Positions 315 through 43,968 are shown, counted from the first letter of the stretch. The stretch is DNA of 64,000 nt from Minisyncoccota bacterium (GCA_031413715.1 JANOFO010000010.1:302-64301), one strand, 5' to 3'. The notes: generated from the sequence alone by a model not told the origin. Numbers and translations: made by a program.

Positions 315-386
315 GCCCTTGTAGTTAAATGGATATAACTGCGGACTTCTAAGCCGTAATTCGAGGTTCGATTCCTCGCGGGGGCA
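315..386 (+). tRNA. tRNA-Arg (anticodon TCT)
   Basis: Cloverleaf built by hand: acceptor gcccttg/cgggggc (two G-U pairs), D-stem gtta/taac, anticodon loop cttctaa with U33 and A37, T-arm cgagg-ttcgatt-cctcg; 72 nt; no encoded CCA. Confidence 0.55.
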
Positions 387-535
387 CAAAAGCGTAAAGT
401 TCAAAAGAGTACTCTGCAGTACTCTTTTGCGCTTTTGTGAACCGGAGCGATATTTTGCGAGCACGCAAAATCGCGAGGTCGGGTCGGGAAAGTTTTGCCT
501 GACGAGGCAAAACTTATCGTAACCAAATTTATTCC

Positions 536-6549: not shown

Positions 6550-6636
6550 GGAAGCGTGGCGGAGTTGGTCTATCGCACTCGTCTTGAAAACGAGAGTCCC
6601 TTTAAAGGACCGTGAGTTCGAATCTCACCGCTTCCG
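6550..6636 (+). tRNA. tRNA-Ser (anticodon TGA), type II with long variable arm
   Basis: Acceptor ggaagcg/cgcttcc, anticodon stem ctcgt/acgag with loop cttgaaa, variable arm gtcc-ttta-aagg-ac, T-arm gtgag-ttcgaat-ctcac, discriminator G. Confidence 0.85.
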
Positions 6637-8199
6637 CAATACTGGTGAAGAGGTGGCGAAAGCCATCTCTCTTCCTTTATCTGCTTGGGTTTTTAGCAGT
6701 TCGTAATCTTGATTCAGCTTCGGTACCCATTCAACCAATAATTGAGCCGCATCTGTATAGAATCTCCTTATTTCAAGCCTGTTTTGCTGTAAGTTCGTAA
6801 AGATTTGAGAAAAGAGTAATCGCTTCTCATCATTGTTAGCTTTCTCATAAATTTCTCGTGCTTTGTACGCGAGTTCATGCACCGCAACTCCTAACTGTAA
6901 GTATTCATCGTTCTTGTCGCCACAACGAACCAGGGCGCTTTCAAGAGCCTCTTCCTCGGTTATCAAATCTCCAATCTTCCTCTCGAAAAATTCTGCTGGA
7001 GCCTCATGATTTATTTTTGCTTCATAGAGCTTATCCTTTTTGGTGCGAACACCTTGGAGTAGTCCATTGATGCGCTTTACGTCATTTTCGCGTTCAGTAA
7101 TCTGCTCACTGTGCTGACTTCTTAAAATATCTTCGATAGCCGAAAGTACACGCTCATCTTTTGGGGCGATGCTATCGAAAATATCAATGAGCTGTAATTC
7201 AACCCTGTCTTCTCGAATACCTGTCTTTTGAGGGCAGTTCTTGAAGGCGGTACTGTTATTACAGTGCCCGTACCAATTACCTTTCTTTTGATACCACGTA
7301 ACCATCCCACCACATCCCTCACAGAAAATCTTGCTCTTAAATAAAGCGTTGTGCTTTTGATACTTTGGATTCTTCATCTGTCGTCTCAAGACAAGTTGCA
7401 CTTTCTCAAAAACATCCCTAGCGACAAGCGACTCGTGAGTGCCAGGGTACACTTCTCCTAGCCATCGTATTTTGCCGATATAGAAAGGGTCTTGGAGTAA
7501 GTTATAGATTCGAGATTTCAATAGCATTTTGCCGCTCGTATTGCGCAATCCAGCATCGTAAAACTCTTTTTCAAGTCTCTTGAGTGAATAATCTCCCGTT
7601 GCGTACAACTCAAACATTTTCTTTATATGCACGGCAACAGCGTCATTTGGCACGTGGATTTTGTGTCCTTTCTCTCCGTCACACCTGTAACCGATAAGTG
7701 GCTTGGCAGGTAATCCACCTTGTGCGATTTTTTCCTTTTGCCCCTTCTTCACTTCTTCTGAAAGATTTGTGACATATTTTTTTGCTAGGACAATTTCAAT
7801 ATCCCATCTGAATTTCTCATCAGATTTGGCATTTTTATGAATGACAAGATTTTGTTTTACAAAATGGATTTGTCTTTCCTCATTAGCCTCAAGCCAATCG
7901 TTGATAGCTAAAGCGTCTTTAAGGTTTCTGGTAAGACGGTCAACTTTTTCGCAAAGGATATTAGTGACTTTATTTTTCTCCGTGAATTTAATCATCTCAT
8001 CAAATACCTTACGTTGCTTTGCTCCGCTTGCTGATTCTGCCATCGAAAATATCTTTACGACGGTCAACTTCTTTTTATTATCAGCATACTCTTTGAGTAA
8101 TTTTTCCTGTGAATCGAGAGAATACCCAGTTTCTTCCTGTTCTCTTGATGAGACTCGACAGTACAGTACGGCTTTTGGTTTTAGTTGGTTAGTAGTCAT
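6625..8199 (-). CDS. large serine recombinase (integrase); its 3' end overlaps the tRNA-Ser 3' end
   Basis: Resolvase catalytic domain (VLYCRVSSREQ, DRLTRN), recombinase domain, zinc ribbon (CEGCGG...HCNN...CP), C-terminal coiled coil; 524 aa. Confidence 0.85.
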   Translation of the reverse strand: MTTNQLKPKAVLYCRVSSREQEETGYSLDSQEKLLKEYADNKKKLTVVKIFSMAESASGAKQRKVFDEMIKFTEKNKVTNILCEKVDRLTRNLKDALAINDWLEANEERQIHFVKQNLVIHKNAKSDEKFRWDIEIVLAKKYVTNLSEEVKKGQKEKIAQGGLPAKPLIGYRCDGEKGHKIHVPNDAVAVHIKKMFELYATGDYSLKRLEKEFYDAGLRNTSGKMLLKSRIYNLLQDPFYIGKIRWLGEVYPGTHESLVARDVFEKVQLVLRRQMKNPKYQKHNALFKSKIFCEGCGGMVTWYQKKGNWYGHCNNSTAFKNCPQKTGIREDRVELQLIDIFDSIAPKDERVLSAIEDILRSQHSEQITERENDVKRINGLLQGVRTKKDKLYEAKINHEAPAEFFERKIGDLITEEEALESALVRCGDKNDEYLQLGVAVHELAYKAREIYEKANNDEKRLLFSQIFTNLQQNRLEIRRFYTDAAQLLVEWVPKLNQDYELLKTQADKGREMAFATSSPVLRKR

Positions 8200-12228: not shown

Positions 12229-15200
12229 ATGAGTACATCACCCTACAATCGAGGTTCAGAATGGAGGAAGTGGGATTTGCAGATTCACACGCCTGCTTCC
12301 GCGCTAAATAACGGTTTCGGTTCAGACTGGGATACATACTTACAAAAACTCTTCAAAGCAGCAATAAAAGAAGACATTGCTGCGGTTGGTGTTACTGACT
12401 ATTTCCACATCGAGGGATACAAAAAGGTTAAATCTTACCTAGGTGACACCGCCAAGATGAAGGCACTATTTTCCGATGAAGAAAGAGAAGCCATTTCAAA
12501 AATACTTATTTTGCCGAACGTAGAGTTCAGACTCTTTCCAATAAATGGCAGCCGTCTAAATTTTCACGTCATATTTTCTGACACGGTTTCAGAGAGAGAT
12601 ATTGAAGATAATTTTCTTCATAACCTTCACTTCGTTCGGGAAGGTAAACCATTTGAGCCAGATGAAAAGAGCAAGCTTAAAATTGGCAACCTTGAGGAAC
12701 TTGGAAAAAAACTTAAAAGCGAGCATGAGCCTTTCCGAACAGACAGTGACCTATTCGTTGGAATGAAAAATGCCGTAGTTTCCGATGAAGAAATTTCAGA
12801 AGTATTGAGTGCAAGACCATCTGCCTTTGCAGGTAAATACGTGCTAGTAATGCCATGCGATGAGGACTTGAGCACTATTCCCTGGGATGGACAAGACCAC
12901 AACACCCGCAAGAAGATGGTACAAAAAACCAACTTCTTTCTCTCATCAAACAGGAATACTATCGACTGGGGTTTGGGCAAGAAACATGAAAATTCAGAAG
13001 ATTTCAAAAATGAATTCAAGTCTTATAAACCTTGTTTGTGGAGTTCTGATGCGCATGACTTTGATAAATTATTCAAACCCGATGAAAATCGTTTTTGTTG
13101 GGTAAAAGCTGACCCCACGTTTGCTGGTCTTCGCCAAATCATTAACGAACCTGAACAGAGAGCTTTCGTTGGAGAACAGCCCCCAAACTATAAGTATGAC
13201 CATCTAGTCATAGAAAAAATTAGTATCCCCACTTCAAATGGATGGTTTAGTGAAAATCTGGAATTGGAACTAAACAGAGACTTGGTAACCATTATTGGTG
13301 GCAGAGGTTCTGGTAAGTCCGCCCTAGCAGAGATGATTGCCTATGGAGGAGGAAGTTGGAGTGGAGGCGAAGAAGCCTTTGTTACGAAAGCCAGTGACCA
13401 CGCACAGGGTATTGAAGGTACGGAAATTACTCTTACCTGGAGTGATGGGCACACAACCACATTTCGTGTAGGCGAAAACCAGGGCGATGAGAAAAGTATT
13501 CGCTATCTTTCTCAAAACGAAATTGAAAGACTTTGCTCACATAAGAATAGTAAAGTTCTTCTTGAACAGATTGAAAGTGTTATTTTCCAAGCTTTGGATG
13601 AGACCGAACGAATGGGCACCTCATCATTTTCTGAACTCACTTCTAAAACCCTAAAGGGATTTAAATTAGAAAAGGAACAGGAAGTGAGAAAGATAAAATC
13701 TAGCGCAAATAATCTTGCATCACTACTCGAAGCAATACGACAGAAACCAGAAAAAGAGAGAACTCTTAAAGATAAAGATGTTGAGTTGAAAAAGCTCAAA
13801 AAGAGTCTCCCTGAACTTCCCGCAGAAGACAAGAAGGGTCAAGACGAACTTGCATCATTGTTATCATTAAAAACAAAGTTTGATGAGAAAATTATCGGAC
13901 TCCAAGCAAAAATTGCCGACCTTTCTGAAGTTACAACAAAGATAGGTCTTTTCCGTAGTGATGTAACGAAATTCGAGAAGGATGTAAATGTTTCAGTTAA
14001 AAAACTTCTCCCAGACTTTGGCTTATTCGCTGTGGGTCTCGATACTTCGAAGCTTGAAGGAGCAATAAAAAAAGAGAGCGGTGAAGTCGCTGACGCGCTA
14101 AAAGCATTGAAAGAGGGCGACAAAAATAAGAACGCTCAACTTTTGGGTATTGAAGTTGCAGAACTAGTATTTCCGAATGCCACAAAACTTGCAGAGGCAA
14201 TAAAGAAAAAACAGGAAGAAACTAAAGCTTCCGAGACTACTAAAATTAAGTACCAACAACAGAAAAAGACGATTGCTGAACTAGAAGCAGTAATAAAGTC
14301 ACTAGAAGTTGAAATAAAGAAAATCAATGAAGAAAGTCTGCCTGAAAGTGAAAAGGCAAAAGCTGATTGTGTAGAGGCTTATTGTGCATACATCGCTATT
14401 CTTGAACGAGAAAAGACAGAGCTTGAGAAACTTTATGAACCATTACAGAGAAATCTCCAGTCAGGTACAGAAACTAATAAGAGATTGGAATTTGAAGCAC
14501 GTCTTGATTTTGAGGTTGAGAATCATATCGAGAGAGGGTTAGGAATAATTGACCGTAATAAAAAAGGTAACTTTAAAGATAAACCAGCGTTAAAAGAAGC
14601 GTTAGAAAAATTCTGGAGCAATATCAAGAAGGATGGATTTTCCACCACAAAAATAAAGGAAGAGCTTGCCGTTCTTGATTCACAGTTTCAAGTTTATGAA
14701 GGTAAACCACGAGATGTTCAAGAACAACTACGTGCTGGCTACGGCGTGGGAGATTTCTATGAATGGTTATTTGACCCAACAAATGTAGATGTTGTCTCTA
14801 CAATCAATTTTGACAAAACAGACCTCTATCTTCTCTCACCTGGCAAGAAAGGAATCGTTCTACTTATTCTTTTCTTGCAAATAGATGGTGACGATACGCG
14901 CCCACTCATCATAGACCAGCCAGAAGAGAATCTAGACAATCTGTCTGTATACCAAGATTTGATTACTTTCTTCAAGGAAAGGAAGCTTTACCGTCAAATT
15001 TTTATTGTTACTCACAACCCTAACCTTGTAGTTAACACGGATGCAGAGCAAGTAATCGTAGCCAACTATAACGGCACTGGTACACCTCGCATTCAATACT
15101 CTGCTGGGTCACTTGAGAATCAAGCCGCTGAATTGCCAGGTGTTGAACTGGAAGATTTAGAGGACGGCATTATTGAGCAGGTCTGCAAAATTCTTGAAGG

Positions 15201-15267
15201 TGGAGAAACTGCGTTTGAAAGTCGTAAGAGGAAATACGAACTGTCAGTAAAAAGCTTCAAAAAGTAA
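12229..15267 (+). CDS. PHP-domain phosphoesterase fused to a coiled-coil ABC/SMC-like ATPase; Ppl-like candidate anti-phage protein
   Basis: PHP motifs WDLQIHTPAS, VGVTDYFH, NFHVIF, WSSDAHDF; Walker A GGRGSGKS; ~500 aa K/E-rich coiled coil; signature LSPGKKG, Walker B LIIDQPEENLD, H-loop VTHNP. Confidence 0.65.
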   Translation: MSTSPYNRGSEWRKWDLQIHTPASALNNGFGSDWDTYLQKLFKAAIKEDIAAVGVTDYFHIEGYKKVKSYLGDTAKMKALFSDEEREAISKILILPNVEFRLFPINGSRLNFHVIFSDTVSERDIEDNFLHNLHFVREGKPFEPDEKSKLKIGNLEELGKKLKSEHEPFRTDSDLFVGMKNAVVSDEEISEVLSARPSAFAGKYVLVMPCDEDLSTIPWDGQDHNTRKKMVQKTNFFLSSNRNTIDWGLGKKHENSEDFKNEFKSYKPCLWSSDAHDFDKLFKPDENRFCWVKADPTFAGLRQIINEPEQRAFVGEQPPNYKYDHLVIEKISIPTSNGWFSENLELELNRDLVTIIGGRGSGKSALAEMIAYGGGSWSGGEEAFVTKASDHAQGIEGTEITLTWSDGHTTTFRVGENQGDEKSIRYLSQNEIERLCSHKNSKVLLEQIESVIFQALDETERMGTSSFSELTSKTLKGFKLEKEQEVRKIKSSANNLASLLEAIRQKPEKERTLKDKDVELKKLKKSLPELPAEDKKGQDELASLLSLKTKFDEKIIGLQAKIADLSEVTTKIGLFRSDVTKFEKDVNVSVKKLLPDFGLFAVGLDTSKLEGAIKKESGEVADALKALKEGDKNKNAQLLGIEVAELVFPNATKLAEAIKKKQEETKASETTKIKYQQQKKTIAELEAVIKSLEVEIKKINEESLPESEKAKADCVEAYCAYIAILEREKTELEKLYEPLQRNLQSGTETNKRLEFEARLDFEVENHIERGLGIIDRNKKGNFKDKPALKEALEKFWSNIKKDGFSTTKIKEELAVLDSQFQVYEGKPRDVQEQLRAGYGVGDFYEWLFDPTNVDVVSTINFDKTDLYLLSPGKKGIVLLILFLQIDGDDTRPLIIDQPEENLDNLSVYQDLITFFKERKLYRQIFIVTHNPNLVVNTDAEQVIVANYNGTGTPRIQYSAGSLENQAAELPGVELEDLEDGIIEQVCKILEGGETAFESRKRKYELSVKSFKK

Positions 15268-30298: not shown

Positions 30299-31345
30299 CT
30301 AATTAATCCACAAACCAAAATAATTTCTTAACCTCATCGATAGCTTGTATGCATTCGCATGAGACAGTACTCCCAGATATGAATGGAGTGTCGCTACTAT
30401 CTTCTCCTTTTCGACCTTTCCTTTCGTGTAATCTTTAATCTTAGCTTCAAACTTTCTAATAACTCGTTTTTTAGTTCTCTTTCGCAGTAAAGTATGATTT
30501 GGGAAAACCACATATCCTAAGAAATCTACTCCTTTTGCGTACGTTAATATCTCAACTTTGTTCGGATGCAGATTCACTCCTAATCTATCTCTCAAAAAAA
30601 CATTCATTGGCTTGATAAGTTTCTCAAGATACTCCTTATCCCTTGAAACAATTATAAAATCATCAGTATATCGGGCATAATAACGAACCTTTAGAATGTG
30701 CTTCATATATTGATCAAACTCATTCATGTATACGTTGGCAAAAAGCTGTGAAGTTAAGTTGCCTATCGGCACTCCTTTCTTCTTGAATAGATCTGATTGC
30801 GTTCCACTGTAGCTTTCAACAAGATTATCTAAAAGCCATAATAAGTCAGCATCCTTAATCCTCCTTCGTAGAATTGACAACAGAATATCATGATCAATCG
30901 AATCAAAGAATTTCCTCACATCGCATTTGAGCGCATAGCATGTCTTGGTATTATTCTTGCTCTCTTTGCGCAGCATTCCTTGAACCACTTCCACTCCTTT
31001 ATGCGATCCCTTGCCAACACGGCAAGAGAATGATTCAGGAATGAAAGTAGGATCAAACACATGATTGATCGTAGACATAATTGCATGATGCAGAACTCTA
31101 TCACGAACAGTCGCTTTGTGAATATGCCGCAGCTTCGGATCGGAGATATAAAATCCGGTATACCCGGAATGCACATACGTTTTAGTTTTTAACTCCCTTG
31201 ATAATTGAAAAATATTATGTTCCAACTCCCTCTCGAATAAAAGGACATCGGGTTTTCTACCTTTACCAACTCTAAATTCCTTCCATGCTTGAAATAGCGT
31301 TTCAGGTTGAACAATCTTATTAAATAAATCTCGATATATAATCAT
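30299..31345 (-). CDS. DGR reverse transcriptase
   Basis: RT motifs present, including KFFDSIDHD and YTDDFIIV (YxDD); the DGR-diagnostic IGNLTSQLFANVY replaces the group-II QGxxxSP motif; start at MIIYRDLFN. Confidence 0.8.
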   Translation of the reverse strand: MIIYRDLFNKIVQPETLFQAWKEFRVGKGRKPDVLLFERELEHNIFQLSRELKTKTYVHSGYTGFYISDPKLRHIHKATVRDRVLHHAIMSTINHVFDPTFIPESFSCRVGKGSHKGVEVVQGMLRKESKNNTKTCYALKCDVRKFFDSIDHDILLSILRRRIKDADLLWLLDNLVESYSGTQSDLFKKKGVPIGNLTSQLFANVYMNEFDQYMKHILKVRYYARYTDDFIIVSRDKEYLEKLIKPMNVFLRDRLGVNLHPNKVEILTYAKGVDFLGYVVFPNHTLLRKRTKKRVIRKFEAKIKDYTKGKVEKEKIVATLHSYLGVLSHANAYKLSMRLRNYFGLWIN

Positions 31346-31696
31346 ATGAATGAAAACGACATACCAGTGCTGAATAAATCGTACGAACTCTACAAGTTGT
31401 TCCACGAATATCGTAAGGTTGTTCCCAAACAAGATCGCTTCACGATTTATGAACGAAGTGAGCATGTCATGCTTGGAACTATAGAACTTCTACTCGAAGC
31501 AAGCTATGGAGACAAAGCGAGGAAGTTGGTAACACTTGAAAAAGTAAGCGTGAAACTCAATGTGCTTCGTTTTCTTATTAGGTTAATGAAAGAAACAAAG
31601 ACATTTGATACCAAGAAATATATAGCACTACAAGCACTCATCGACGAGATCGGTCGCATGACCGGCGGATGGATGCGATCGCTCATAAACAAATAG
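31346..31696 (+). CDS. avd: DGR accessory variability determinant Avd (four-helix-bundle family)
   Basis: 116 aa; YELYKLFHEYRKVVPKQDRFTI...LRFLIRL...LIDEIGRMTGGWMRSL matches the Avd / 23S-IVS four-helix-bundle pattern; divergent from the RT. Confidence 0.65.
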   Translation: MNENDIPVLNKSYELYKLFHEYRKVVPKQDRFTIYERSEHVMLGTIELLLEASYGDKARKLVTLEKVSVKLNVLRFLIRLMKETKTFDTKKYIALQALIDEIGRMTGGWMRSLINK

Positions 31697-31770: not shown

Positions 31771-31888
31771 CGGAGAACCCGGACGCAGAACCGTAATTGG
31801 CATTCGCATTGGACACATCGTTCGCGTCCATCTTAACCTTGTCGTCATTGAAGTTGACGTTCGGAGCATGACCGAAGACACCATCGCC
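31771..31888 (-). repeat. DGR template repeat (TR), 118 bp
   Basis: Aligns to 32272-32389; all 17 mismatches are T on the plus strand (A on the minus strand) in this copy against C/A/G in the other. Confidence 0.8.
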
Positions 31889-32257: not shown

Positions 32258-33193
32258 TCAAGATCCAATCGCGGAGAACCCGGACGCAGAACCGAAATCG
32301 GCAAACGCATAGGACACACCGTACGCGCCCATCCCAACCTCGCCGTCATGGAAGAAGACGCGCGGAGCATGACCGAAGACACCATCGCCCTTATCACTGT
32401 ACTCATCACCGGGGCAATCAATCCAAAGATCGTTGACATTGCTCAGGCGTTCAGGATGAGTGAAGATTAATGTCAGCACTTCGTATGCGCCGAGGCCAAA
32501 CTCACCGAACATAACTTCCCGGGCTCTTCTGACACTTTTTCCGGCATGATTGATGCCGAACTGAAACGGAACGAGCAGAACTCCACTCGGACGGCCTTGT
32601 GCGATCCATAATGCTTCTGTGTTCTCAGTAAGCTCACTTCCACGGCGATAATATTGCCGGCTCCATTTGCCTTCACGGTAATCTTGGAAATTTCCTCTGG
32701 ATTTTTTAATAAATCCCTGGATACGCTCCATCGGTTTTCCGTAATCCATAGCCGGATCATTTTCATGGTTGGTAAACATGCTTTCATCAAGCACGATTAC
32801 GCCCAGTCCTTCACCGAGGGATTTCTGGGAAACCATAACTTTCTGCTTTTCGGTAAGCGTCCAATTCACTTCCCGTCCCCAATCGTAAAATTGAAGAAGG
32901 GTAATTTGCAAATTAACGGGTTTAGGAACCCGATAGCCGGAAAGATAACCGTAGGCCGAGGTGACCTGCTCTTTGATGTACTTGTCCGGGGTGGCCATGT
33001 CCCGCAGGATTTCTCTGGCAGCTTTTTCCAAACGATTTTTAAAATCACTTGGTTTCATAATGATACGTTGCTGGATCAGATCTCGTGAGAGATTTGATTC
33101 TGTTGTAACCACAGCTTTAACAGCTTGTCTGCCAAATTCTACAATGCTGTCGCGTTGGTCAGGTGTCATGGATGTCATCTTGGTAGTGATCAT
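32258..33193 (-). CDS. DGR target (variable) protein with C-terminal VR, probably a C-type-lectin/FGE-like fold
   Basis: VR occupies the last ~40 codons and ends 12 nt before the stop. Confidence 0.65.
   Translation of the reverse strand: MITTKMTSMTPDQRDSIVEFGRQAVKAVVTTESNLSRDLIQQRIIMKPSDFKNRLEKAAREILRDMATPDKYIKEQVTSAYGYLSGYRVPKPVNLQITLLQFYDWGREVNWTLTEKQKVMVSQKSLGEGLGVIVLDESMFTNHENDPAMDYGKPMERIQGFIKKSRGNFQDYREGKWSRQYYRRGSELTENTEALWIAQGRPSGVLLVPFQFGINHAGKSVRRAREVMFGEFGLGAYEVLTLIFTHPERLSNVNDLWIDCPGDEYSDKGDGVFGHAPRVFFHDGEVGMGAYGVSYAFADFGSASGFSAIGS
32272..32389 (-). repeat. DGR variable repeat (VR)
   Basis: 118-bp near-copy of TR differing only at TR adenines. Confidence 0.8.
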
Positions 33194-33419: not shown

Positions 33420-33434
33420 TGTGATCCCGGCAGG
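33420..33434. repeat. 15-nt direct repeat of the tRNA-Arg(GCG) 3' end (tgtgatcccggcagg)
   Basis: Identical to 33681-33695. Confidence 0.5.
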
Positions 33435-33682
33435 GTAATCTCGCCTACGGCGCGTGATTGGTGGTTTGTAAACAAACAACACCAATCTTTCGCTTCCTGC
33501 ACGCGACTGAAGCAGTTCAGTCGCTCGGGAACGATTTACTTGTGACTACAAATATTTCCATCTCGTCAGCCGGAAATTTCGCAGCCCGCCCCTCGTGGTT
33601 TTGCGTGGTCGCAAAACATCACTGCGGTCATCACAAAGTGTAAAAGACCTCCGCAGGGAGCTCTTTTTGAATACGCGCTTTG

Positions 33683-33754
33683 TGATCCCGGCAGGAATCG
33701 AACCTGCATCGCAACTTCCGCAAAGTTGCGTCCTATCCATTGAACGACGGGACC
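33683..33754 (-). tRNA. tRNA-Arg (anticodon GCG, unusual for bacteria)
   Basis: Acceptor ggtcccg/cgggatc (one G-U), D-arm gttc-aatggata-ggac, anticodon stem caact/agttg with loop ttgcgga, T-arm gcagg-ttcgatt-cctgc; 72 nt. Confidence 0.55.
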
Positions 33755-33757
33755 AAT

Positions 33758-33997
33758 TTACTTTAACTTATTTTTTAAATATCTTCTCCCTGCGGCACTT
33801 TTCCAATACTTTTCTTTCTTTACAGCTTCTTCTTTTGTCTCACATTGCTCGTGATAGGCAATTTCAAAAGGAATATAGTTCTTGATTGATTTTGTCATTC
33901 CTGAATTATGTTGAGATAATCGTACTTTTAAGTCTTCAGAAAATCCCTTGTAATAGAAATTCTTGATCTTACTTTTCAAAACATAAACATAATACAT
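33758..33997 (-). CDS. small GIY-YIG nuclease domain protein (UPF0213-like)
   Basis: YYVYVLKS...YYKGFSEDLKVRLSQHNSG is a classic GIY-YIG motif; 79 aa. Confidence 0.7.
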   Translation of the reverse strand: MYYVYVLKSKIKNFYYKGFSEDLKVRLSQHNSGMTKSIKNYIPFEIAYHEQCETKEEAVKKEKYWKSAAGRRYLKNKLK

Positions 33998-34003
33998 ATG
34001 TGT

Positions 34004-34070
34004 GTCCTATCCCCGCCCGACTGAACGATCACTCCAGTCGTTCGGGCGGGCATTGAACGACGGGACCAAT
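34004..34070. repeat. duplicated 5' portion of tRNA-Arg(GCG) (9 nt + 19 nt) interrupted by a 39-nt GC-rich hairpin insertion
   Basis: gtcctatcc[ccgcccgactgaacgatcactccagtcgttcgggcgggc]attgaacgacgggaccaat compared with 33730-33757. Confidence 0.5.
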
Positions 34071-34128
34071 ATGGTTTAATCTATCTCAAAAGAAAGATAT
34101 TAGCAAGTTCTTTTATAGACTCTCGCTT

Positions 34129-35403
34129 GTGAATTTGTTAAACTTTTATAGTAAATATATGTACCGATTTGTTGCAATTTTCCGAAGCGAAACAATATAC
34201 TTCAAAGAGCATATTAGCCCTAATGTAAGGCGAGTCTTTACTTCTAATATTTTTAAGTCAATTTCTAGTCCATTAATGACGACATTTCTTAATGCGTTCG
34301 TTTTCCGGGCTAGTGGGACACTTGCTGGCGTAGCAATATATAACGTGGGGCTCTTTGTATGTTTACCGATAGCATTTTATATAAACGGTCTTTTTCTGCG
34401 CCACATAAATATTCGCATAATGCTTGCTTGGGGAGCAATTTTAGGTGGTGGTGCAAGTATCGCATTCGTTTTAGCAGGACCTACGACCATGCTTACAACG
34501 TTCTTATATGGATGTGCTTGGGGTTTAGGTAATGGTTTTTATTGGGCAAATCGTAATTATCTCGAATTTCAAGAGACGATCACATCAATGCGCCAATACT
34601 TTTATGGGCTAATTTTATCGATTACATCAATTGCAAACATCGCAGTTCCATTTATTGCTGGATGGTTTATTGTCATAGGAGAGCGCTTGAATTTATATTC
34701 AACAAAACATGCTTACTGGATAATTTTCGGTTTTTCTTTTATTCTTTTACTGATATGTGGGGCTATCATTCGCAGAGGACAGTTTGATTCACCTGCGCCT
34801 CCTGCTATTTCACGTTTGAGAATACGTCCTTTTTTAAACACTCGTAGACTTCTTTCGATAGCGTCAGGATTCACTGACGGCACAATTTCACTTACTGTGG
34901 TTCTACTTGTGCTTCTTTTGGTTGGAAATGAAGGAATTTTGGGAAGTTTGACGGGATTGGTATCTTTTGCAACTGCCGTTGCTATGTATTTATACGGAAG
35001 ATATGTAAACATAAAATATGAACTTCGAACAATGCTTGTTTCAAGTATTGTTTTTTTCCTAGCAGCAATATGCCTGATTGTTTTACCAGGTATTATAGGG
35101 ATTATGCTATATATTCTTCTGGTTGGAATCTCAACAAACTTTTTTGCGATGTCATCGAGTCCCCTACTCTTTTCCCTCGCTGAAACAGAGATGGGTCAAG
35201 ATAGTACAATGCGCTATTCTTTTATTTTTGACAATGAGCTTTTTCTTAATATCGGAAGGCTTATTGCTATAGGTATTCTTTTTCTATTTTCTTACTTTCA
35301 AACTGAAACATCTACTCTTATTTTCGGATCAGTAGCTATAGCGGGACTGCATCTCTTTATCATGGCGGCCTTTTTTGCACGCAATCAATACTCCCTAAAA
35401 TAG
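34129..35403 (+). CDS. polytopic membrane transporter (MFS-like, ~12 TM)
   Basis: Hydropathy pattern; Gly-rich helices. Confidence 0.45.
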   Translation: MNLLNFYSKYMYRFVAIFRSETIYFKEHISPNVRRVFTSNIFKSISSPLMTTFLNAFVFRASGTLAGVAIYNVGLFVCLPIAFYINGLFLRHINIRIMLAWGAILGGGASIAFVLAGPTTMLTTFLYGCAWGLGNGFYWANRNYLEFQETITSMRQYFYGLILSITSIANIAVPFIAGWFIVIGERLNLYSTKHAYWIIFGFSFILLLICGAIIRRGQFDSPAPPAISRLRIRPFLNTRRLLSIASGFTDGTISLTVVLLVLLLVGNEGILGSLTGLVSFATAVAMYLYGRYVNIKYELRTMLVSSIVFFLAAICLIVLPGIIGIMLYILLVGISTNFFAMSSSPLLFSLAETEMGQDSTMRYSFIFDNELFLNIGRLIAIGILFLFSYFQTETSTLIFGSVAIAGLHLFIMAAFFARNQYSLK

Positions 35404-35498
35404 TATTTATCATGCTAACTTTACTTGTAATACTAAACAAAATTTCTGGCCCGTATTCTGACTACTAAGTAAGAGAGGACATTTTACCCACTTGCATT

Positions 35499-35855
35499 TT
35501 GTATGACATTGTCATACAATATCACTATATGGAAAATAATAATAAAGACTATATTCTGAATATCAGGGTCTCAAAAGAGACCTACAAAAAAGTGAAGGAT
35601 ATGGCTAAAGATAACAGTGAATCTGTCTCGGCTCTAATTCGTAAGGTCCTTAAAGATAGTGAAGAGATTCTTGGAGATATTTTCCCTCATAAAAGTGGTT
35701 GGGATAGCATCAAGACGTTTAGTACAGAAAAAGCTGCACGAGACATTGTTTGCGAAAAAACAGGAAAGAAGGTAAAAAAAGGAAGTCCTGTTGTTGTCGG
35801 TCAAACGTCCTCGGGAAAACGCTACTATTTCGCTCCTGGCCATGAACCACGCTAA
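35499..35855 (+). CDS. ribbon-helix-helix (CopG-like) DNA-binding protein
   Basis: ILNIRVSKETYKKVKDMAKDNSESVSALIRKVL beta-strand/helix pattern; start uncertain (Met1 or Met11). Confidence 0.45.
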   Translation: MYDIVIQYHYMENNNKDYILNIRVSKETYKKVKDMAKDNSESVSALIRKVLKDSEEILGDIFPHKSGWDSIKTFSTEKAARDIVCEKTGKKVKKGSPVVVGQTSSGKRYYFAPGHEPR

Positions 35856-35859
35856 TCAT

Positions 35860-37266
35860 ATGGAAAGAAAAACTTTCAGACGGTGGATTAAAATCATCTC
35901 TGTTATTTCCAAATATTTCTTATTCTACAAGCTCGGGAAACACAGAAAGGATATATTTGGCAAGAGGCTTCGCTATGCTTGCGAAGAACTAGGACCCATA
36001 TTCATAAAGCTTGGGCAGATTTTGAGTACCCGGTATGATGTTCTCAGCAACGAGAACTGTACCGAGCTTCAAAAACTACTCGACCAAGTTGAACCTATCC
36101 CTCTCCAAAAGGTTGAGAATATAATTCAAAAAGATTTCGGGAAGAAATATACAGCATTATTCAAGACTTTCGATACGATACCGCTCGCATCTGCTTCAAT
36201 TGCCCAAGTACACCGAGCGACTTTGCTAAATGGCAAAAAAGTCGCTGTTAAAATACGTCGGCCGGAGGTCAGCGAGCATGTCGAATCAGACATACGTGTT
36301 CTCAAGCAAGTGGTCTCCGCATTAGAACTGTTTTCACCTACCTTGCGTCATGTTGATGGAAAACAAGTTGTCAGTCAGTTGCATGACTGGATATTGGTGG
36401 AGATGAATTTCAAGCAAGAGGTGCAGAATATTAAACAGATGAAAAGCTACCTAGCCCACGCAGCAGAATATACTAATACGTCAGATGAAGAAGCGAACAA
36501 TTTAGTAATTCCAGATGTGTATGAAGAGTACTGCACGGAAAATGTGATCGTCATGGAATTTATCGACGGTGTCCCGCTTTCAAAATTTGAGACAATCAAG
36601 GACAATCCGGAGTATAACATCATGGGATCTGCAAAAGCGATTGCAATGCTCGTTTTACGCCACTGGCTTGTCGCGTGTGACGATGAGTATGTCTTCCACG
36701 CAGACCCTCATCCCGCGAATGTGCTCATATTACCGCATGGCAGGCTCGCTCTTGTGGATTTTGGTCTGATCGGGCATCTATCTCCCGAACAAACGCGACA
36801 CACGGCTGATCTCTTTTTGGCCGTCTATGCGCGCAATCTCGAGCTTTCAATCAAATATGCACTTGCGATTCCGGGTGTCGACCATGAGAAGTACTCAGAG
36901 AAAGTACGTCCCGATATCCAAGCATACCTTCGCAAAACTCCTGCGAAAGGAATCGGCTTTTGGTTCATGGGATTTGTACGCATATTCGTAAAACACAGGG
37001 TGCCAATTCCATATGACATAATCCTCTTTGGCCGCCAGAACACCGTGGGAGATGGATTGATAAGTACAATTCTTCCCGGCAAGACGACTATTGATATCAT
37101 GGGAGAGGAACTTGCGCGAGCGCTCCGTAAAAAAATTGCCCAGAACATATTGGATGTGGATTTCACGCGACTAGCGTATGCTGTTTCCGAGGAGGTGAAA
37201 AATAGCCCAGAGAAAGTTGTTTCAATTCTTGATCGGCTTAGTAAAGACCCGTCTGCGATTTATTAG
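35860..37266 (+). CDS. ABC1/UbiB/AarF-family atypical protein kinase
   Basis: LGPIFIKLGQILSTRYDVL...ASASIAQVHRA...VAVKIRRP; start at MERKTF. Confidence 0.75.
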   Translation: MERKTFRRWIKIISVISKYFLFYKLGKHRKDIFGKRLRYACEELGPIFIKLGQILSTRYDVLSNENCTELQKLLDQVEPIPLQKVENIIQKDFGKKYTALFKTFDTIPLASASIAQVHRATLLNGKKVAVKIRRPEVSEHVESDIRVLKQVVSALELFSPTLRHVDGKQVVSQLHDWILVEMNFKQEVQNIKQMKSYLAHAAEYTNTSDEEANNLVIPDVYEEYCTENVIVMEFIDGVPLSKFETIKDNPEYNIMGSAKAIAMLVLRHWLVACDDEYVFHADPHPANVLILPHGRLALVDFGLIGHLSPEQTRHTADLFLAVYARNLELSIKYALAIPGVDHEKYSEKVRPDIQAYLRKTPAKGIGFWFMGFVRIFVKHRVPIPYDIILFGRQNTVGDGLISTILPGKTTIDIMGEELARALRKKIAQNILDVDFTRLAYAVSEEVKNSPEKVVSILDRLSKDPSAIY

Positions 37267-43653: not shown

Positions 43654-43740
43654 ATATTTATTATAGCAATTAATTACAGTTTGGGTCAGTAAAAACTACC
43701 TCGGTAGGATATCTCGGCTACCGCCACGGGATTGGGAAAA

Positions 43741-43793
43741 GGTTTTCGATTCCTACACACGAGACGCGTAGGTGTCTCACTCGAGGGCACAAA
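43741..43793. repeat. inverted partial copy of the tRNA-Lys T-arm plus 3' acceptor strand with a 25-nt hairpin insertion
   Basis: ggttttcgattcctac[acacgagacgcgtaggtgtctcact]cgagggcacaaa against tRNA-Lys gtaggttcgattcctaccgagggcacaaa; also a 12-nt direct copy of the tRNA 3' end at 43699-43710. Confidence 0.45.
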
Positions 43794-43895
43794 TATATTT
43801 CTTTTGTGGTCAGGCATAGTTTTCTGCTGAAAACTTGCACGACCCTGGCTCGGCACGTCTGCCTCCGCCCGGCACAAAAGTGTCCCACACTTTTG

Positions 43896-43968
43896 TGCCC
43901 TCGGTAGGAATCGAACCTACGACCATCTCCTTAAAAGGGAGCTGCTCTACCAACTGAGCTACGAGGGC
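43896..43968 (-). tRNA. tRNA-Lys (anticodon TTT)
   Basis: gccctcg-ta-gctc-agttggta-gagc-a-gctcc-cttttaa-ggaga-tggtc-gtagg-ttcgatt-cctac-cgagggc-a; followed by a terminator hairpin. Confidence 0.8.

Follow-up and report, generated by a model that had tools for sequence, protein, structure and literature searches.

A predicted GIY-YIG nuclease gene, a short hairpin and a second, broken copy of a tRNA 5′ end lie on the 5′ side of a tRNA-Arg(GCG) gene in the 64,000-nt stretch of DNA analysed here (GCA_031413715.1 JANOFO010000010.1:302-64301; hereafter the window), and on the 3′ side of the same gene lies a structured repeat that ends in a copy of the tRNA 3′ end. The window derives from an AT-rich bacterial genome, probably that of a member of the Patescibacteria (candidate phyla radiation, CPR). 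With rather more confidence than doubt, we interpret the interval at 33420-34070 as one working tRNA-Arg(GCG) gene with unrelated tRNA-associated elements on each side: a homing-type cassette on the 5′ side and a member of a family of tRNA-skeleton repeats on the 3′ side. The features of the interval, in the direction in which the tRNA is read and with tRNA nucleotides (nt) numbered from its 5′ end, are as follows.

34078..34106, minus strand: promoter-like TTGCTA-17 nt-TAGATT, read from the sequence, just upstream of the displaced 5′ fragment
34051..34067, minus strand: displaced original tRNA-Arg 5′ end, nt 1-17 (GGTCCCGTCGTTCAATG), identical to nt 1-17 of the intact gene
34012..34050, no strand assigned: 39-nt hairpin element with palindromic ends CCCGCCCG...CGGGCGGG, between tRNA G17 and G18
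34004..34011, minus strand: remnant of tRNA nt 18-25 (GATAGGAC), repeat family D6
33758..33997, minus strand: predicted gene for a 79-aa stand-alone GIY-YIG nuclease (Pfam PF01541, E=1.9e-14)
33682-33754, minus strand: intact tRNA-Arg(GCG), found by ARAGORN and scoring 58.6 bits with the Rfam tRNA model
33562..33681, minus strand: terminator-like hairpin and 'module X', with hairpins GTTTTGCG-ACCA-CGCAAAAC and AAATTTCC-[GGCUGACGAGAU]-GGAAAT
33421..33561, minus strand: 'tRNA-skeleton' structured repeat (covariance model R1, 84.3 bits, E=1.6e-22)
33420..33434, minus strand: 15-nt copy of the tRNA 3′ end (T-stem 3′ strand, acceptor 3′ strand, A, CA), forming the 3′ terminus of the skeleton repeat

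The stop codon of the GIY-YIG open reading frame (ORF) is separated from nt 1 of the intact tRNA by 3 nt, and tRNA nt 1-17 together with 'att' span 34051-34070. The 15-mer TGTGATCCCGGCAGG is present as an exact direct repeat at 33420-33434 and 33681-33695 (repeat family D4). The neighbours of the interval are a gene resembling those of the major facilitator superfamily (MFS) and a diversity-generating retroelement (DGR). This layout bears out an earlier note on the same DNA, which had described the direct repeat of the tRNA 3′ end, the GC-richer hairpin DNA between its two copies, the 79-aa ORF beside the tRNA, the duplication of the tRNA 5′ portion split by a 39-nt hairpin and the position of the DGR 3′ of the tRNA. 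An independent assembly of the same strain (L002/L003, corresponding to window positions 33707-36617) ends inside the tRNA at 33707, and this break may reflect repeated tRNA-derived sequence or population variation.

The GIY-YIG gene is linked to tRNA-Arg genes and to a D-loop hairpin

A scan of one genome per species gave 461 relatives, of which the closest 80 loci were analysed. Isolates with the cassette include Niastella yeongjuensis DSM 17621, Cecembia lonarensis LW9, Indibacter alkaliphilus LW1, Pleomorphovibrio marinus and Agriterribacter humi. An uninterrupted tRNA-Arg gene on the same strand abuts the ORF in 78 of these 80 loci, which come from Patescibacteria and Bacteroidota, and in the remaining 2 the ORF abuts hairpin-interrupted tRNA-Arg copies. 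The tRNA lies ~12 nt upstream of the ORF in 51 loci and 0-10 nt downstream of it, or overlapping it, in 27; the anticodon of the host gene is GCG in Patescibacteria and CCG or CCT in Bacteroidota. The stop codon itself is a TAG made by tRNA nt 8-10 in 44 of 89 ORFs. Almost always a partial copy of tRNA-Arg lies beyond the ORF, and its break is at nt 17/18 in the D loop.

The insert at this break has the ends CCCGCCCG...CGGGCGGG and is usually 27-28 nt long in Bacteroidota and 35-47 nt long in Patescibacteria. Homologous D-loop inserts were found in 68 tRNA-Arg copies (48 distinct sequences; median folding z -2.5). Exact reverse-complement versions of the hairpin occupy the same site in different genomes, and the window hairpin is flipped relative to those of L004, L006, L010 and L011. 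Redundant tRNA copies also have hairpins of a similar kind at nt 35/36, 50/51, 55/56 and 61/62, and in 1.26 Mb of related loci the hairpins are almost confined to tRNA-Arg contexts. A search for other copies of the hairpin, which the earlier note had recommended, found no second copy in the 64-kb window; the 68 copies are in tRNA-Arg copies of related loci. The element does not behave like dispersed repetitive extragenic palindromic (REP) sequences or miniature inverted-repeat transposable elements (MITEs), which recur many times in the intergenic DNA of a genome. All 10 GIY-positive CPR loci that could be assessed have the hairpin at nt 17/18, as against none of the 103 GIY-negative loci. With this distribution it is a conserved part of the cassette and not the later, independent scar that it had been taken for.

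The cassette thus delimited occupies ~315 bp in the original D-arm and consists of the 39-nt hairpin, a D-arm remnant, the GIY-YIG gene and a new copy of tRNA nt 1-25. In relatives, the D-arm remnant reaches nt 30-33 and is fused directly to the ATG. In the window, AGGA within the GATAGGAC remnant, 7 nt before the ATG, may serve as a ribosome-binding site. Removal of the insert yields a valid tRNA in only 15 of the 68 interrupted copies, which indicates that the interrupted copies are relics and not spliced genes.

At one locus, L066 (90-250 and 2456-2850), a near-identical pair of tRNA-Arg(CCT) copies carries hairpins in the D loop and the T loop with all stems intact; no uninterrupted tRNA-Arg(CCT) copy lies within this 6.7-kb locus.

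Occupied and empty tRNA-Arg genes

A scan of metagenomes with the uninterrupted tRNA-Arg(GCG) sequence returned 120 loci, 105 of them with enough upstream sequence. The cassette is present in 2 of the 105 and also in L085, which has less flank, so that ~3% of the loci are occupied, and 13 metagenomic loci have a tRNA 100% identical to that of the window and no cassette. According to the earlier note, an absence of empty-site variants among related tRNA-Arg loci would have argued for a fixed structural feature, but such variants are common. Occupied L006 could be compared with the orthologous empty sites L154 and L141, with flanks that are ~80% identical. The extra DNA in L006 comprises the hairpin, GATAGGAC, 6 nt, the ORF, 2 nt and a second copy of nt 1-25, and the native upstream flank that L006 has in common with L154 and L141 runs into the upstream copy of nt 1-17. 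The window's own orthologous locus was not found among the 120 metagenome loci, and the empty-site evidence comes from relatives.

Several other loci bear on movement of the cassette. In L011, L013 and L143 the cassette splits the native gene, and the acceptor stem of the intact tRNA is foreign and unlike that of the split gene, so that a tRNA can be brought in by the cassette. In some genomes (L014/L037 and L072/L077) the cassette occupies two isoacceptor genes, and CCG and CCT hosts are intermixed when the proteins are clustered. Tandem arrays of units in L040 (3224-4400) and L078 (3720-3990) show repeated insertion events. From these sequence comparisons we conclude that the cassette is an insertion relative to orthologous empty sites, that it regenerates an intact tRNA, and that its occurrence is sporadic and specific to tRNA-Arg. 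The earlier suggestion of a homing cassette that restores the tRNA is upheld as far as restoration goes, since the 5′ portion carried by the cassette regenerates the gene in L006 relative to L154 and L141; homing by the nuclease is something that we infer.

The multi-unit loci vary in their make-up. In L040 and L078, several ORF-deleted units of 79-97 nt (ORF tail, nt 1-17, hairpin and nt 18-30) precede the intact tRNA, and in L040 it is followed by 372-nt repeats of the ORF and a doubly interrupted tRNA. In L011 (4234-4528), L013 (4234-4428) and L143 (Saccharibacteria-type), the foreign-type tRNA-Arg is followed by one or two more tRNA units with D-loop hairpins, the last of which is a chimera of foreign and native tRNA.

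The GIY-YIG protein is a single catalytic domain

The protein has 146 detected homologues. Y16, K17, G18, H30, N31 and E62 are invariant and R26 is near-invariant among these, and in 30 aligned sequences Y5, Y16-K17-G18, R26, H30-N31 and E62 are invariant or nearly so. The AlphaFold2 model of the 79-aa protein (predicted local distance difference test score, pLDDT, 94.6) has a three-strand sheet plus helices. Motifs, conserved residues and fold together place the protein in the GIY-YIG superfamily (PF01541). The top match in a fold search was the UPF0213 protein BH0048 (1zg2), and the Slx1 nuclease domain (7cq3_A) matched with a template modelling (TM) score of 0.73 and a root-mean-square deviation of 1.7 A; a profile search of PDB sequences gave 1YWL (E=9.8e-8) and 1ZG2 (E=7.1e-7). 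As a single domain in the range of ~80-100 aa that resembles EF2693 and BH0048, the protein fits among the UPF0213/YhbQ-like proteins. It also matches PHROG 314, 'homing endonuclease' (E=3.5e-6). With endonucleases of the I-TevI/Seg type it has in common a gene that is present or absent at a conserved target site (L006 versus L154/L141), but not a catalytic domain tethered to a separate DNA-binding domain. Look-ups of the exact protein gave matches from the same strain only, at 100% identity.

A model for spread of the 5′ cassette

We infer that the cassette is a homing-type selfish element specialised on tRNA-Arg and that its spread is driven by the nuclease. Spread would start when the nuclease breaks an unoccupied tRNA-Arg gene, or a folded form of it. 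Because tRNA sequence flanks the ORF on both sides, the cassette would be copied during repair, with the flanking tRNA sequence acting as homology arms that are portable between species. The fresh copy of nt 1-25 would then join the old nt 26-73 to give an intact tRNA, and the old nt 1-17 would be left with the promoter-like sequence. This sequence, TTGCTA-17-TAGATT, is presumably the native tRNA promoter. A TTGC(N)A-17-TA(G/A)ATT layout precedes the 5′ fragment in L005, L011 and L013 as well; a sigma-70 consensus scan did not flag the window sequence, which fell below threshold, and it now lies ~310 nt from the intact tRNA. The tRNA promoter may thus drive the fragment, the hairpin, the ORF and the tRNA. 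The hairpin and the truncation would break the homology between the tRNA copies and so slow deletion of the ORF.

Several observations weigh against this model. The 79-aa protein is a catalytic domain alone, without a DNA-binding domain, and its model fits the structure-specific nuclease Slx1 better (TM 0.73) than it fits the catalytic domain of I-TevI (TM 0.53). Classical homing endonucleases need self-immunity of the occupied allele, but the intact tRNA beside the ORF is the same as the empty-site tRNAs, so that self-immunity is not visible. No relatives of the protein were found on the phages, plasmids or viral contigs searched, and no vector was found. Orthologous empty sites were seen in Patescibacteria only, not in Bacteroidota, and the locus counts rest on the closest 80 of the 461 relatives. 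We would file the cassette as a variant of homing-type selfish DNA, and its product as no more than a putative homing endonuclease: of two defining features of that class, site-specific cleavage and a DNA-binding domain, the second is missing. The bare catalytic domain, the Slx1-like model, the lack of visible self-immunity and the missing vector make structure-specific action on the hairpin or on folded tRNA DNA a serious alternative.

Other explanations for the 5′ side

One such explanation is that the hairpins are themselves the mobile entity, entering tRNA-Arg loops in the manner of MITEs, and that the GIY-YIG protein is a structure-specific, transposase-like helper that cuts extruded hairpins or folded tRNA DNA, with the ORF itself spreading only by tandem duplication and by recombination between tRNA copies. 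The hairpins do occupy several tRNA positions (17/18 and the four further sites given above), sometimes nested and in both orientations, the protein fold is closest to the nuclease domain of Slx1, a cutter of branched DNA, and tandem unit arrays exist. However, the Patescibacteria hairpin is never found without the ORF (0 of 103 GIY-negative loci), no copy lies elsewhere in the 64-kb window, and a comparison of occupied and empty sites finds hairpin and ORF arriving together. We consider this explanation unlikely.

In a related proposal, the Slx1-like protein recognises folded nucleic acid and not sequence, the substrate being either the extruded hairpin or the cloverleaf of tRNA-Arg DNA in single-stranded or supercoiled form, and insertion into tRNA loops is guided by structure. 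The flanking tRNA fragments might then help pairing. Targeting of this kind would account for the position of junctions and hairpins in the D, anticodon and T loops, and for an enzyme of only 80 aa being enough; we regard it as quite unlikely.

It is also conceivable that the cassette is immobile and inherited vertically, with the GIY-YIG protein as a functional partner of tRNA-Arg in processing, repair or regulation and with the pseudo-tRNA and hairpin as a cis-regulatory leader. The strict linkage to tRNA-Arg in two phyla, the ORF stop codon inside the tRNA and the well-conserved, intact protein are consistent with this idea. Yet only ~3% of CPR tRNA-Arg(GCG) genes are occupied and identical tRNAs exist without the cassette, there are orthologous empty sites, L011 and L013 have a foreign tRNA in place of the native one, tandem arrays and copies in decay are frequent, and two isoacceptor genes can be occupied per genome (L014/L037 and L072/L077), all of which makes a fixed partner most unlikely.

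The direct repeat of the tRNA 3′ end is a classic signature of attachment (att) sites, and a serine recombinase gene overlaps another tRNA in the window; the repeats could on these grounds be scars of tyrosine- or serine-integrase islands that integrated in the tRNA and were then deleted. We hold this to be very improbable. Despite the repeats, neither the interval nor its neighbouring genes include an integrase; the two repeats enclose a member of a conserved, covarying family and not a random remnant; and duplication of a tRNA 5′ part with a break in the D loop is not known from integrase elements.

Scarcely credible is the idea that the hairpins are RNA-level mini-introns in functional tRNAs and that the GIY-YIG protein is an intron-associated homing endonuclease: the inserts are mostly in loops, ten interrupted copies are identical to their intact neighbour over nt 17-73 and L066 has interrupted copies only within 6.7 kb, but 53 of the 68 interrupted copies tested were not tRNA-like after insert removal, which mostly excludes splicing, 78 of 80 loci have an adjacent intact copy, the inserts are found in either orientation, Rfam gives no ribozyme match and bacteria, to our knowledge, are without the archaeal splicing endonuclease.

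Two further candidates were rejected. A group I intron found no Rfam intron family even at E up to 10, and an uninterrupted tRNA is present. An archaeal split tRNA, or one with a bulge-helix-bulge (BHB) intron, was suggested by the DGR and by the anticodon, GCG, but the PolA, PBP1A and PilM encoded in the window are bacterial.

A tRNA-skeleton repeat on the 3′ side

The DNA between the two 15-nt copies is ~50% GC, compared with 24-33% in the flanks, and folds better than shuffled sequences on both strands (z -3.85 and -5.15). It contains the perfect hairpin gcgactgaa-gcag-ttcagtcgc at 33503-33524. At <=3 mismatches the 15-mer has three matches where 0.59 are expected, and 0 of 100 shuffles gave three; weaker similarity runs on into the T loop (GATTA-CCTGCC versus GATT-CCTGCC). 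A third 15-mer copy, which might delimit an island large enough to include the DGR, was looked for without success.

The repeat is built on the plan of a tRNA. Its order is acceptor-5′-like strand, AG, hairpin P1, CGT, T-stem 5′ strand, two hairpins, T-stem 3′ strand and acceptor 3′ strand, so that, relative to a tRNA, one hairpin replaces the D and anticodon arms and two hairpins replace the T loop. The acceptor and T stems match whichever tRNA precedes. The parts of the window copy at 33421-33561 are as follows.

33526-33532: acceptor-5′-like strand
33504-33523: hairpin P1
33496-33500: T-stem 5′ strand, GCAGG
33457-33486: hairpin P3
33442-33453: hairpin P4
33423-33434: T-stem 3′ strand and acceptor 3′ strand

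This copy folds with a minimum free energy of -48.1 kcal/mol (z -4.77). When 11 compact copies were aligned, 34 consensus pairs were obtained, 24 of them with compensatory changes on both sides, and 94.9% of alignment cells were paired compared with 76.5% in shuffles, none of 500 shuffles being as high. A covariance model built from this 11-copy alignment gave 52 matches in 100 metagenome loci. Fifty of the matches were examined: in 44 cases the copy immediately follows a tRNA gene (Arg, Lys or Ser) of the same strand or belongs to a tandem series that does, and 22 of the 50 have the terminal repeat of the tRNA 3′ end. The window holds two more copies.

43695-43807, minus strand: full skeleton copy after tRNA-Lys(TTT) at 43895-43968, 49.3 bits
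20521-20660, plus strand: orphan skeleton copy between convergent ORFs, with no tRNA nearby, 35.9 bits, E=2.8e-8

The tRNA-Lys copy (43695-43894) is preceded by a partial module-X-like segment, and its stems match tRNA-Lys and not tRNA-Arg.

GC-rich hairpin DNA follows the tRNA in all CPR relatives except L004, which has the cassette without the 3′ element, and most loci with the 3′ element have no GIY-YIG gene. Judged from its distribution, the skeleton-repeat family is independent of the GIY-YIG cassette. The earlier note had read the 3′ repeat and its hairpins as scars of the same element, within a set of nested or serial insertions at the tRNA. Insertion at the tRNA survives from that proposal, as an account neither of the hairpin as an independent scar nor of the 3′ repeat, which belongs to a separate structured family also found after tRNA-Lys and tRNA-Ser. 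We interpret the skeleton repeat as a small RNA gene or a non-autonomous repeat that would spread at the 3′ ends of tRNAs; counting against this, tandem copies could arise by slippage between repeats. In copying the stems of its neighbour tRNA, it could be a second case of structure- or pairing-directed targeting. The idea that the 3′ element holds inverted and perhaps guide-like copies of the tRNA 3′ end was set aside, since a skeleton of acceptor and T-stem strands on the same strand is the simpler reading.

Module X is homologous to the DNA after tRNA-Arg(TCT) and to that after an identical tRNA in L165, with compensatory changes in its hairpins, and the tRNA-Lys copy of module X aligns in part. 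The homologue in the window is as follows.

385-530, plus strand: module X homologue after tRNA-Arg(TCT) at 315-387, with a terminator-like hairpin, a ATTTTGCGAGCACGCAAAAT hairpin and a CUGACGAG-loop hairpin

This homologue has no skeleton repeat and no GIY-YIG gene with it. A hammerhead-like reading of CUGACGAG was rejected, as it is no more than a conserved loop and no ribozyme was matched. When the interval, the window as a whole and six related loci were scanned against Rfam, only tRNA was returned, with no family for the 3′ repeat.

Comparison with known systems

Among the free-standing GIY-YIG homing endonuclease genes of T4-like phages, the closest case is that of SegB, in the tRNA gene cluster of phage T4 (PMC2330249). 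The cassette is like this system in that a GIY-YIG gene lies near tRNA genes, flanking DNA is inherited with the nuclease gene, and presence/absence polymorphism is seen. SegB, however, is phage-borne, has extra DNA-binding regions and is not known to come with a partial tRNA duplication, whereas the cassette encodes a bare 79-aa catalytic domain, is chromosomal, is always at tRNA-Arg, and has a conserved hairpin and a partial duplication that regenerates the gene. In size and single-domain build the protein is like UPF0213, and its best structure matches also come from the stand-alone nucleases of the Slx1/URI and UPF0213 (YhbQ-like) types. Slx1 cuts branched DNA with Slx4 in eukaryotes; we know of no link between UPF0213 proteins and tRNA genes or hairpin elements.

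In a case from archaea, an insert with a recombinase gene has a 5′ fragment of tRNA-Thr remaining on its upstream side (Sugahara et al. 2012, PMC3293823). As with such tRNA-targeting integrative elements, the cassette leaves a gene fragment and supplies the missing part, and a working tRNA persists. Those elements are kilobases long and encode a recombinase, and the bacterial ones usually replace the 3′ part of the gene; the cassette, in contrast, is ~315 bp long, encodes a nuclease domain only and replaces the 5′ part, with the break in the D-arm. Like REP elements with their REP-associated tyrosine transposases (RAYTs), and like MITEs, the cassette hairpins are short GC-rich palindromes with inverted ends that recur many times, face either way and are associated with a single small enzyme gene. 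They differ in being confined to tRNA-Arg genes and pseudogenes and in having a GIY-YIG nuclease as partner, where the partner of REP elements is an HUH/Y1 transposase.

The 3′ repeat can be set beside tRNA-like non-coding RNAs, namely the tRNA-like domain of transfer-messenger RNA (tmRNA) and the bacterial Y RNA YrlA (PMC4201824). Like these RNAs, it keeps acceptor-like and T-like stems, with other helices in place of the rest. Unlike them, it is without an Rfam match, has its T loop replaced, copies the preceding tRNA and occurs in tandem.

Full-text literature searching found no description of the GIY-YIG cassette or of the 3′ skeleton element, and a cassette family in tRNA-Arg genes of two phyla is apparently undescribed. 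If our reading is true, a ~315-bp selfish element lives only in arginine tRNA genes, repairs the gene that it interrupts and may use the tRNA promoter, and in some lineages the host tRNA has been replaced by an imported one, which would make the element hard to lose. A function and a genomic context would be provided for the tiny GIY-YIG proteins of Bacteroidota and Patescibacteria, which form a large family without annotation. The cassette would also be a natural case of portable homology arms, and its enzyme would be a nuclease of very small footprint with a precise target, amenable to work in cultivable Bacteroidota. The tRNA-skeleton repeat would be a separate, abundant structured element of CPR genomes that is missing from Rfam.

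Other features of the window

The DGR immediately 3′ of the interval is complete and has the following parts.

30299-31465: DGR reverse transcriptase (RT) gene
31346-31696: bAvd gene, on the strand opposite to the RT gene and overlapping its start
31771-31888: template repeat (TR), 86% identical to the variable repeat
32272-32389: variable repeat (VR), at the 3′ end of the target gene
32258-33193: DGR target gene, 311 aa, no Pfam match

A 47%-identical RT lies next to the tRNA-Arg(GCG) of another CPR contig, L099. Elsewhere in the window, a gene for a large serine recombinase lies at 6625-8199 on the minus strand, and its 13-nt overlap with the 3′ end of tRNA-Ser(TGA) (6550-6637) suggests an integrated element; no further copy of this 3′ end, such as would mark off an island beside the recombinase gene, was found in the window. 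A gene at 12229-15267 on the plus strand encodes a 1012-aa TrlF-family AAA-like ATPase (628 bits) with weaker similarity to the anti-phage protein Ppl.

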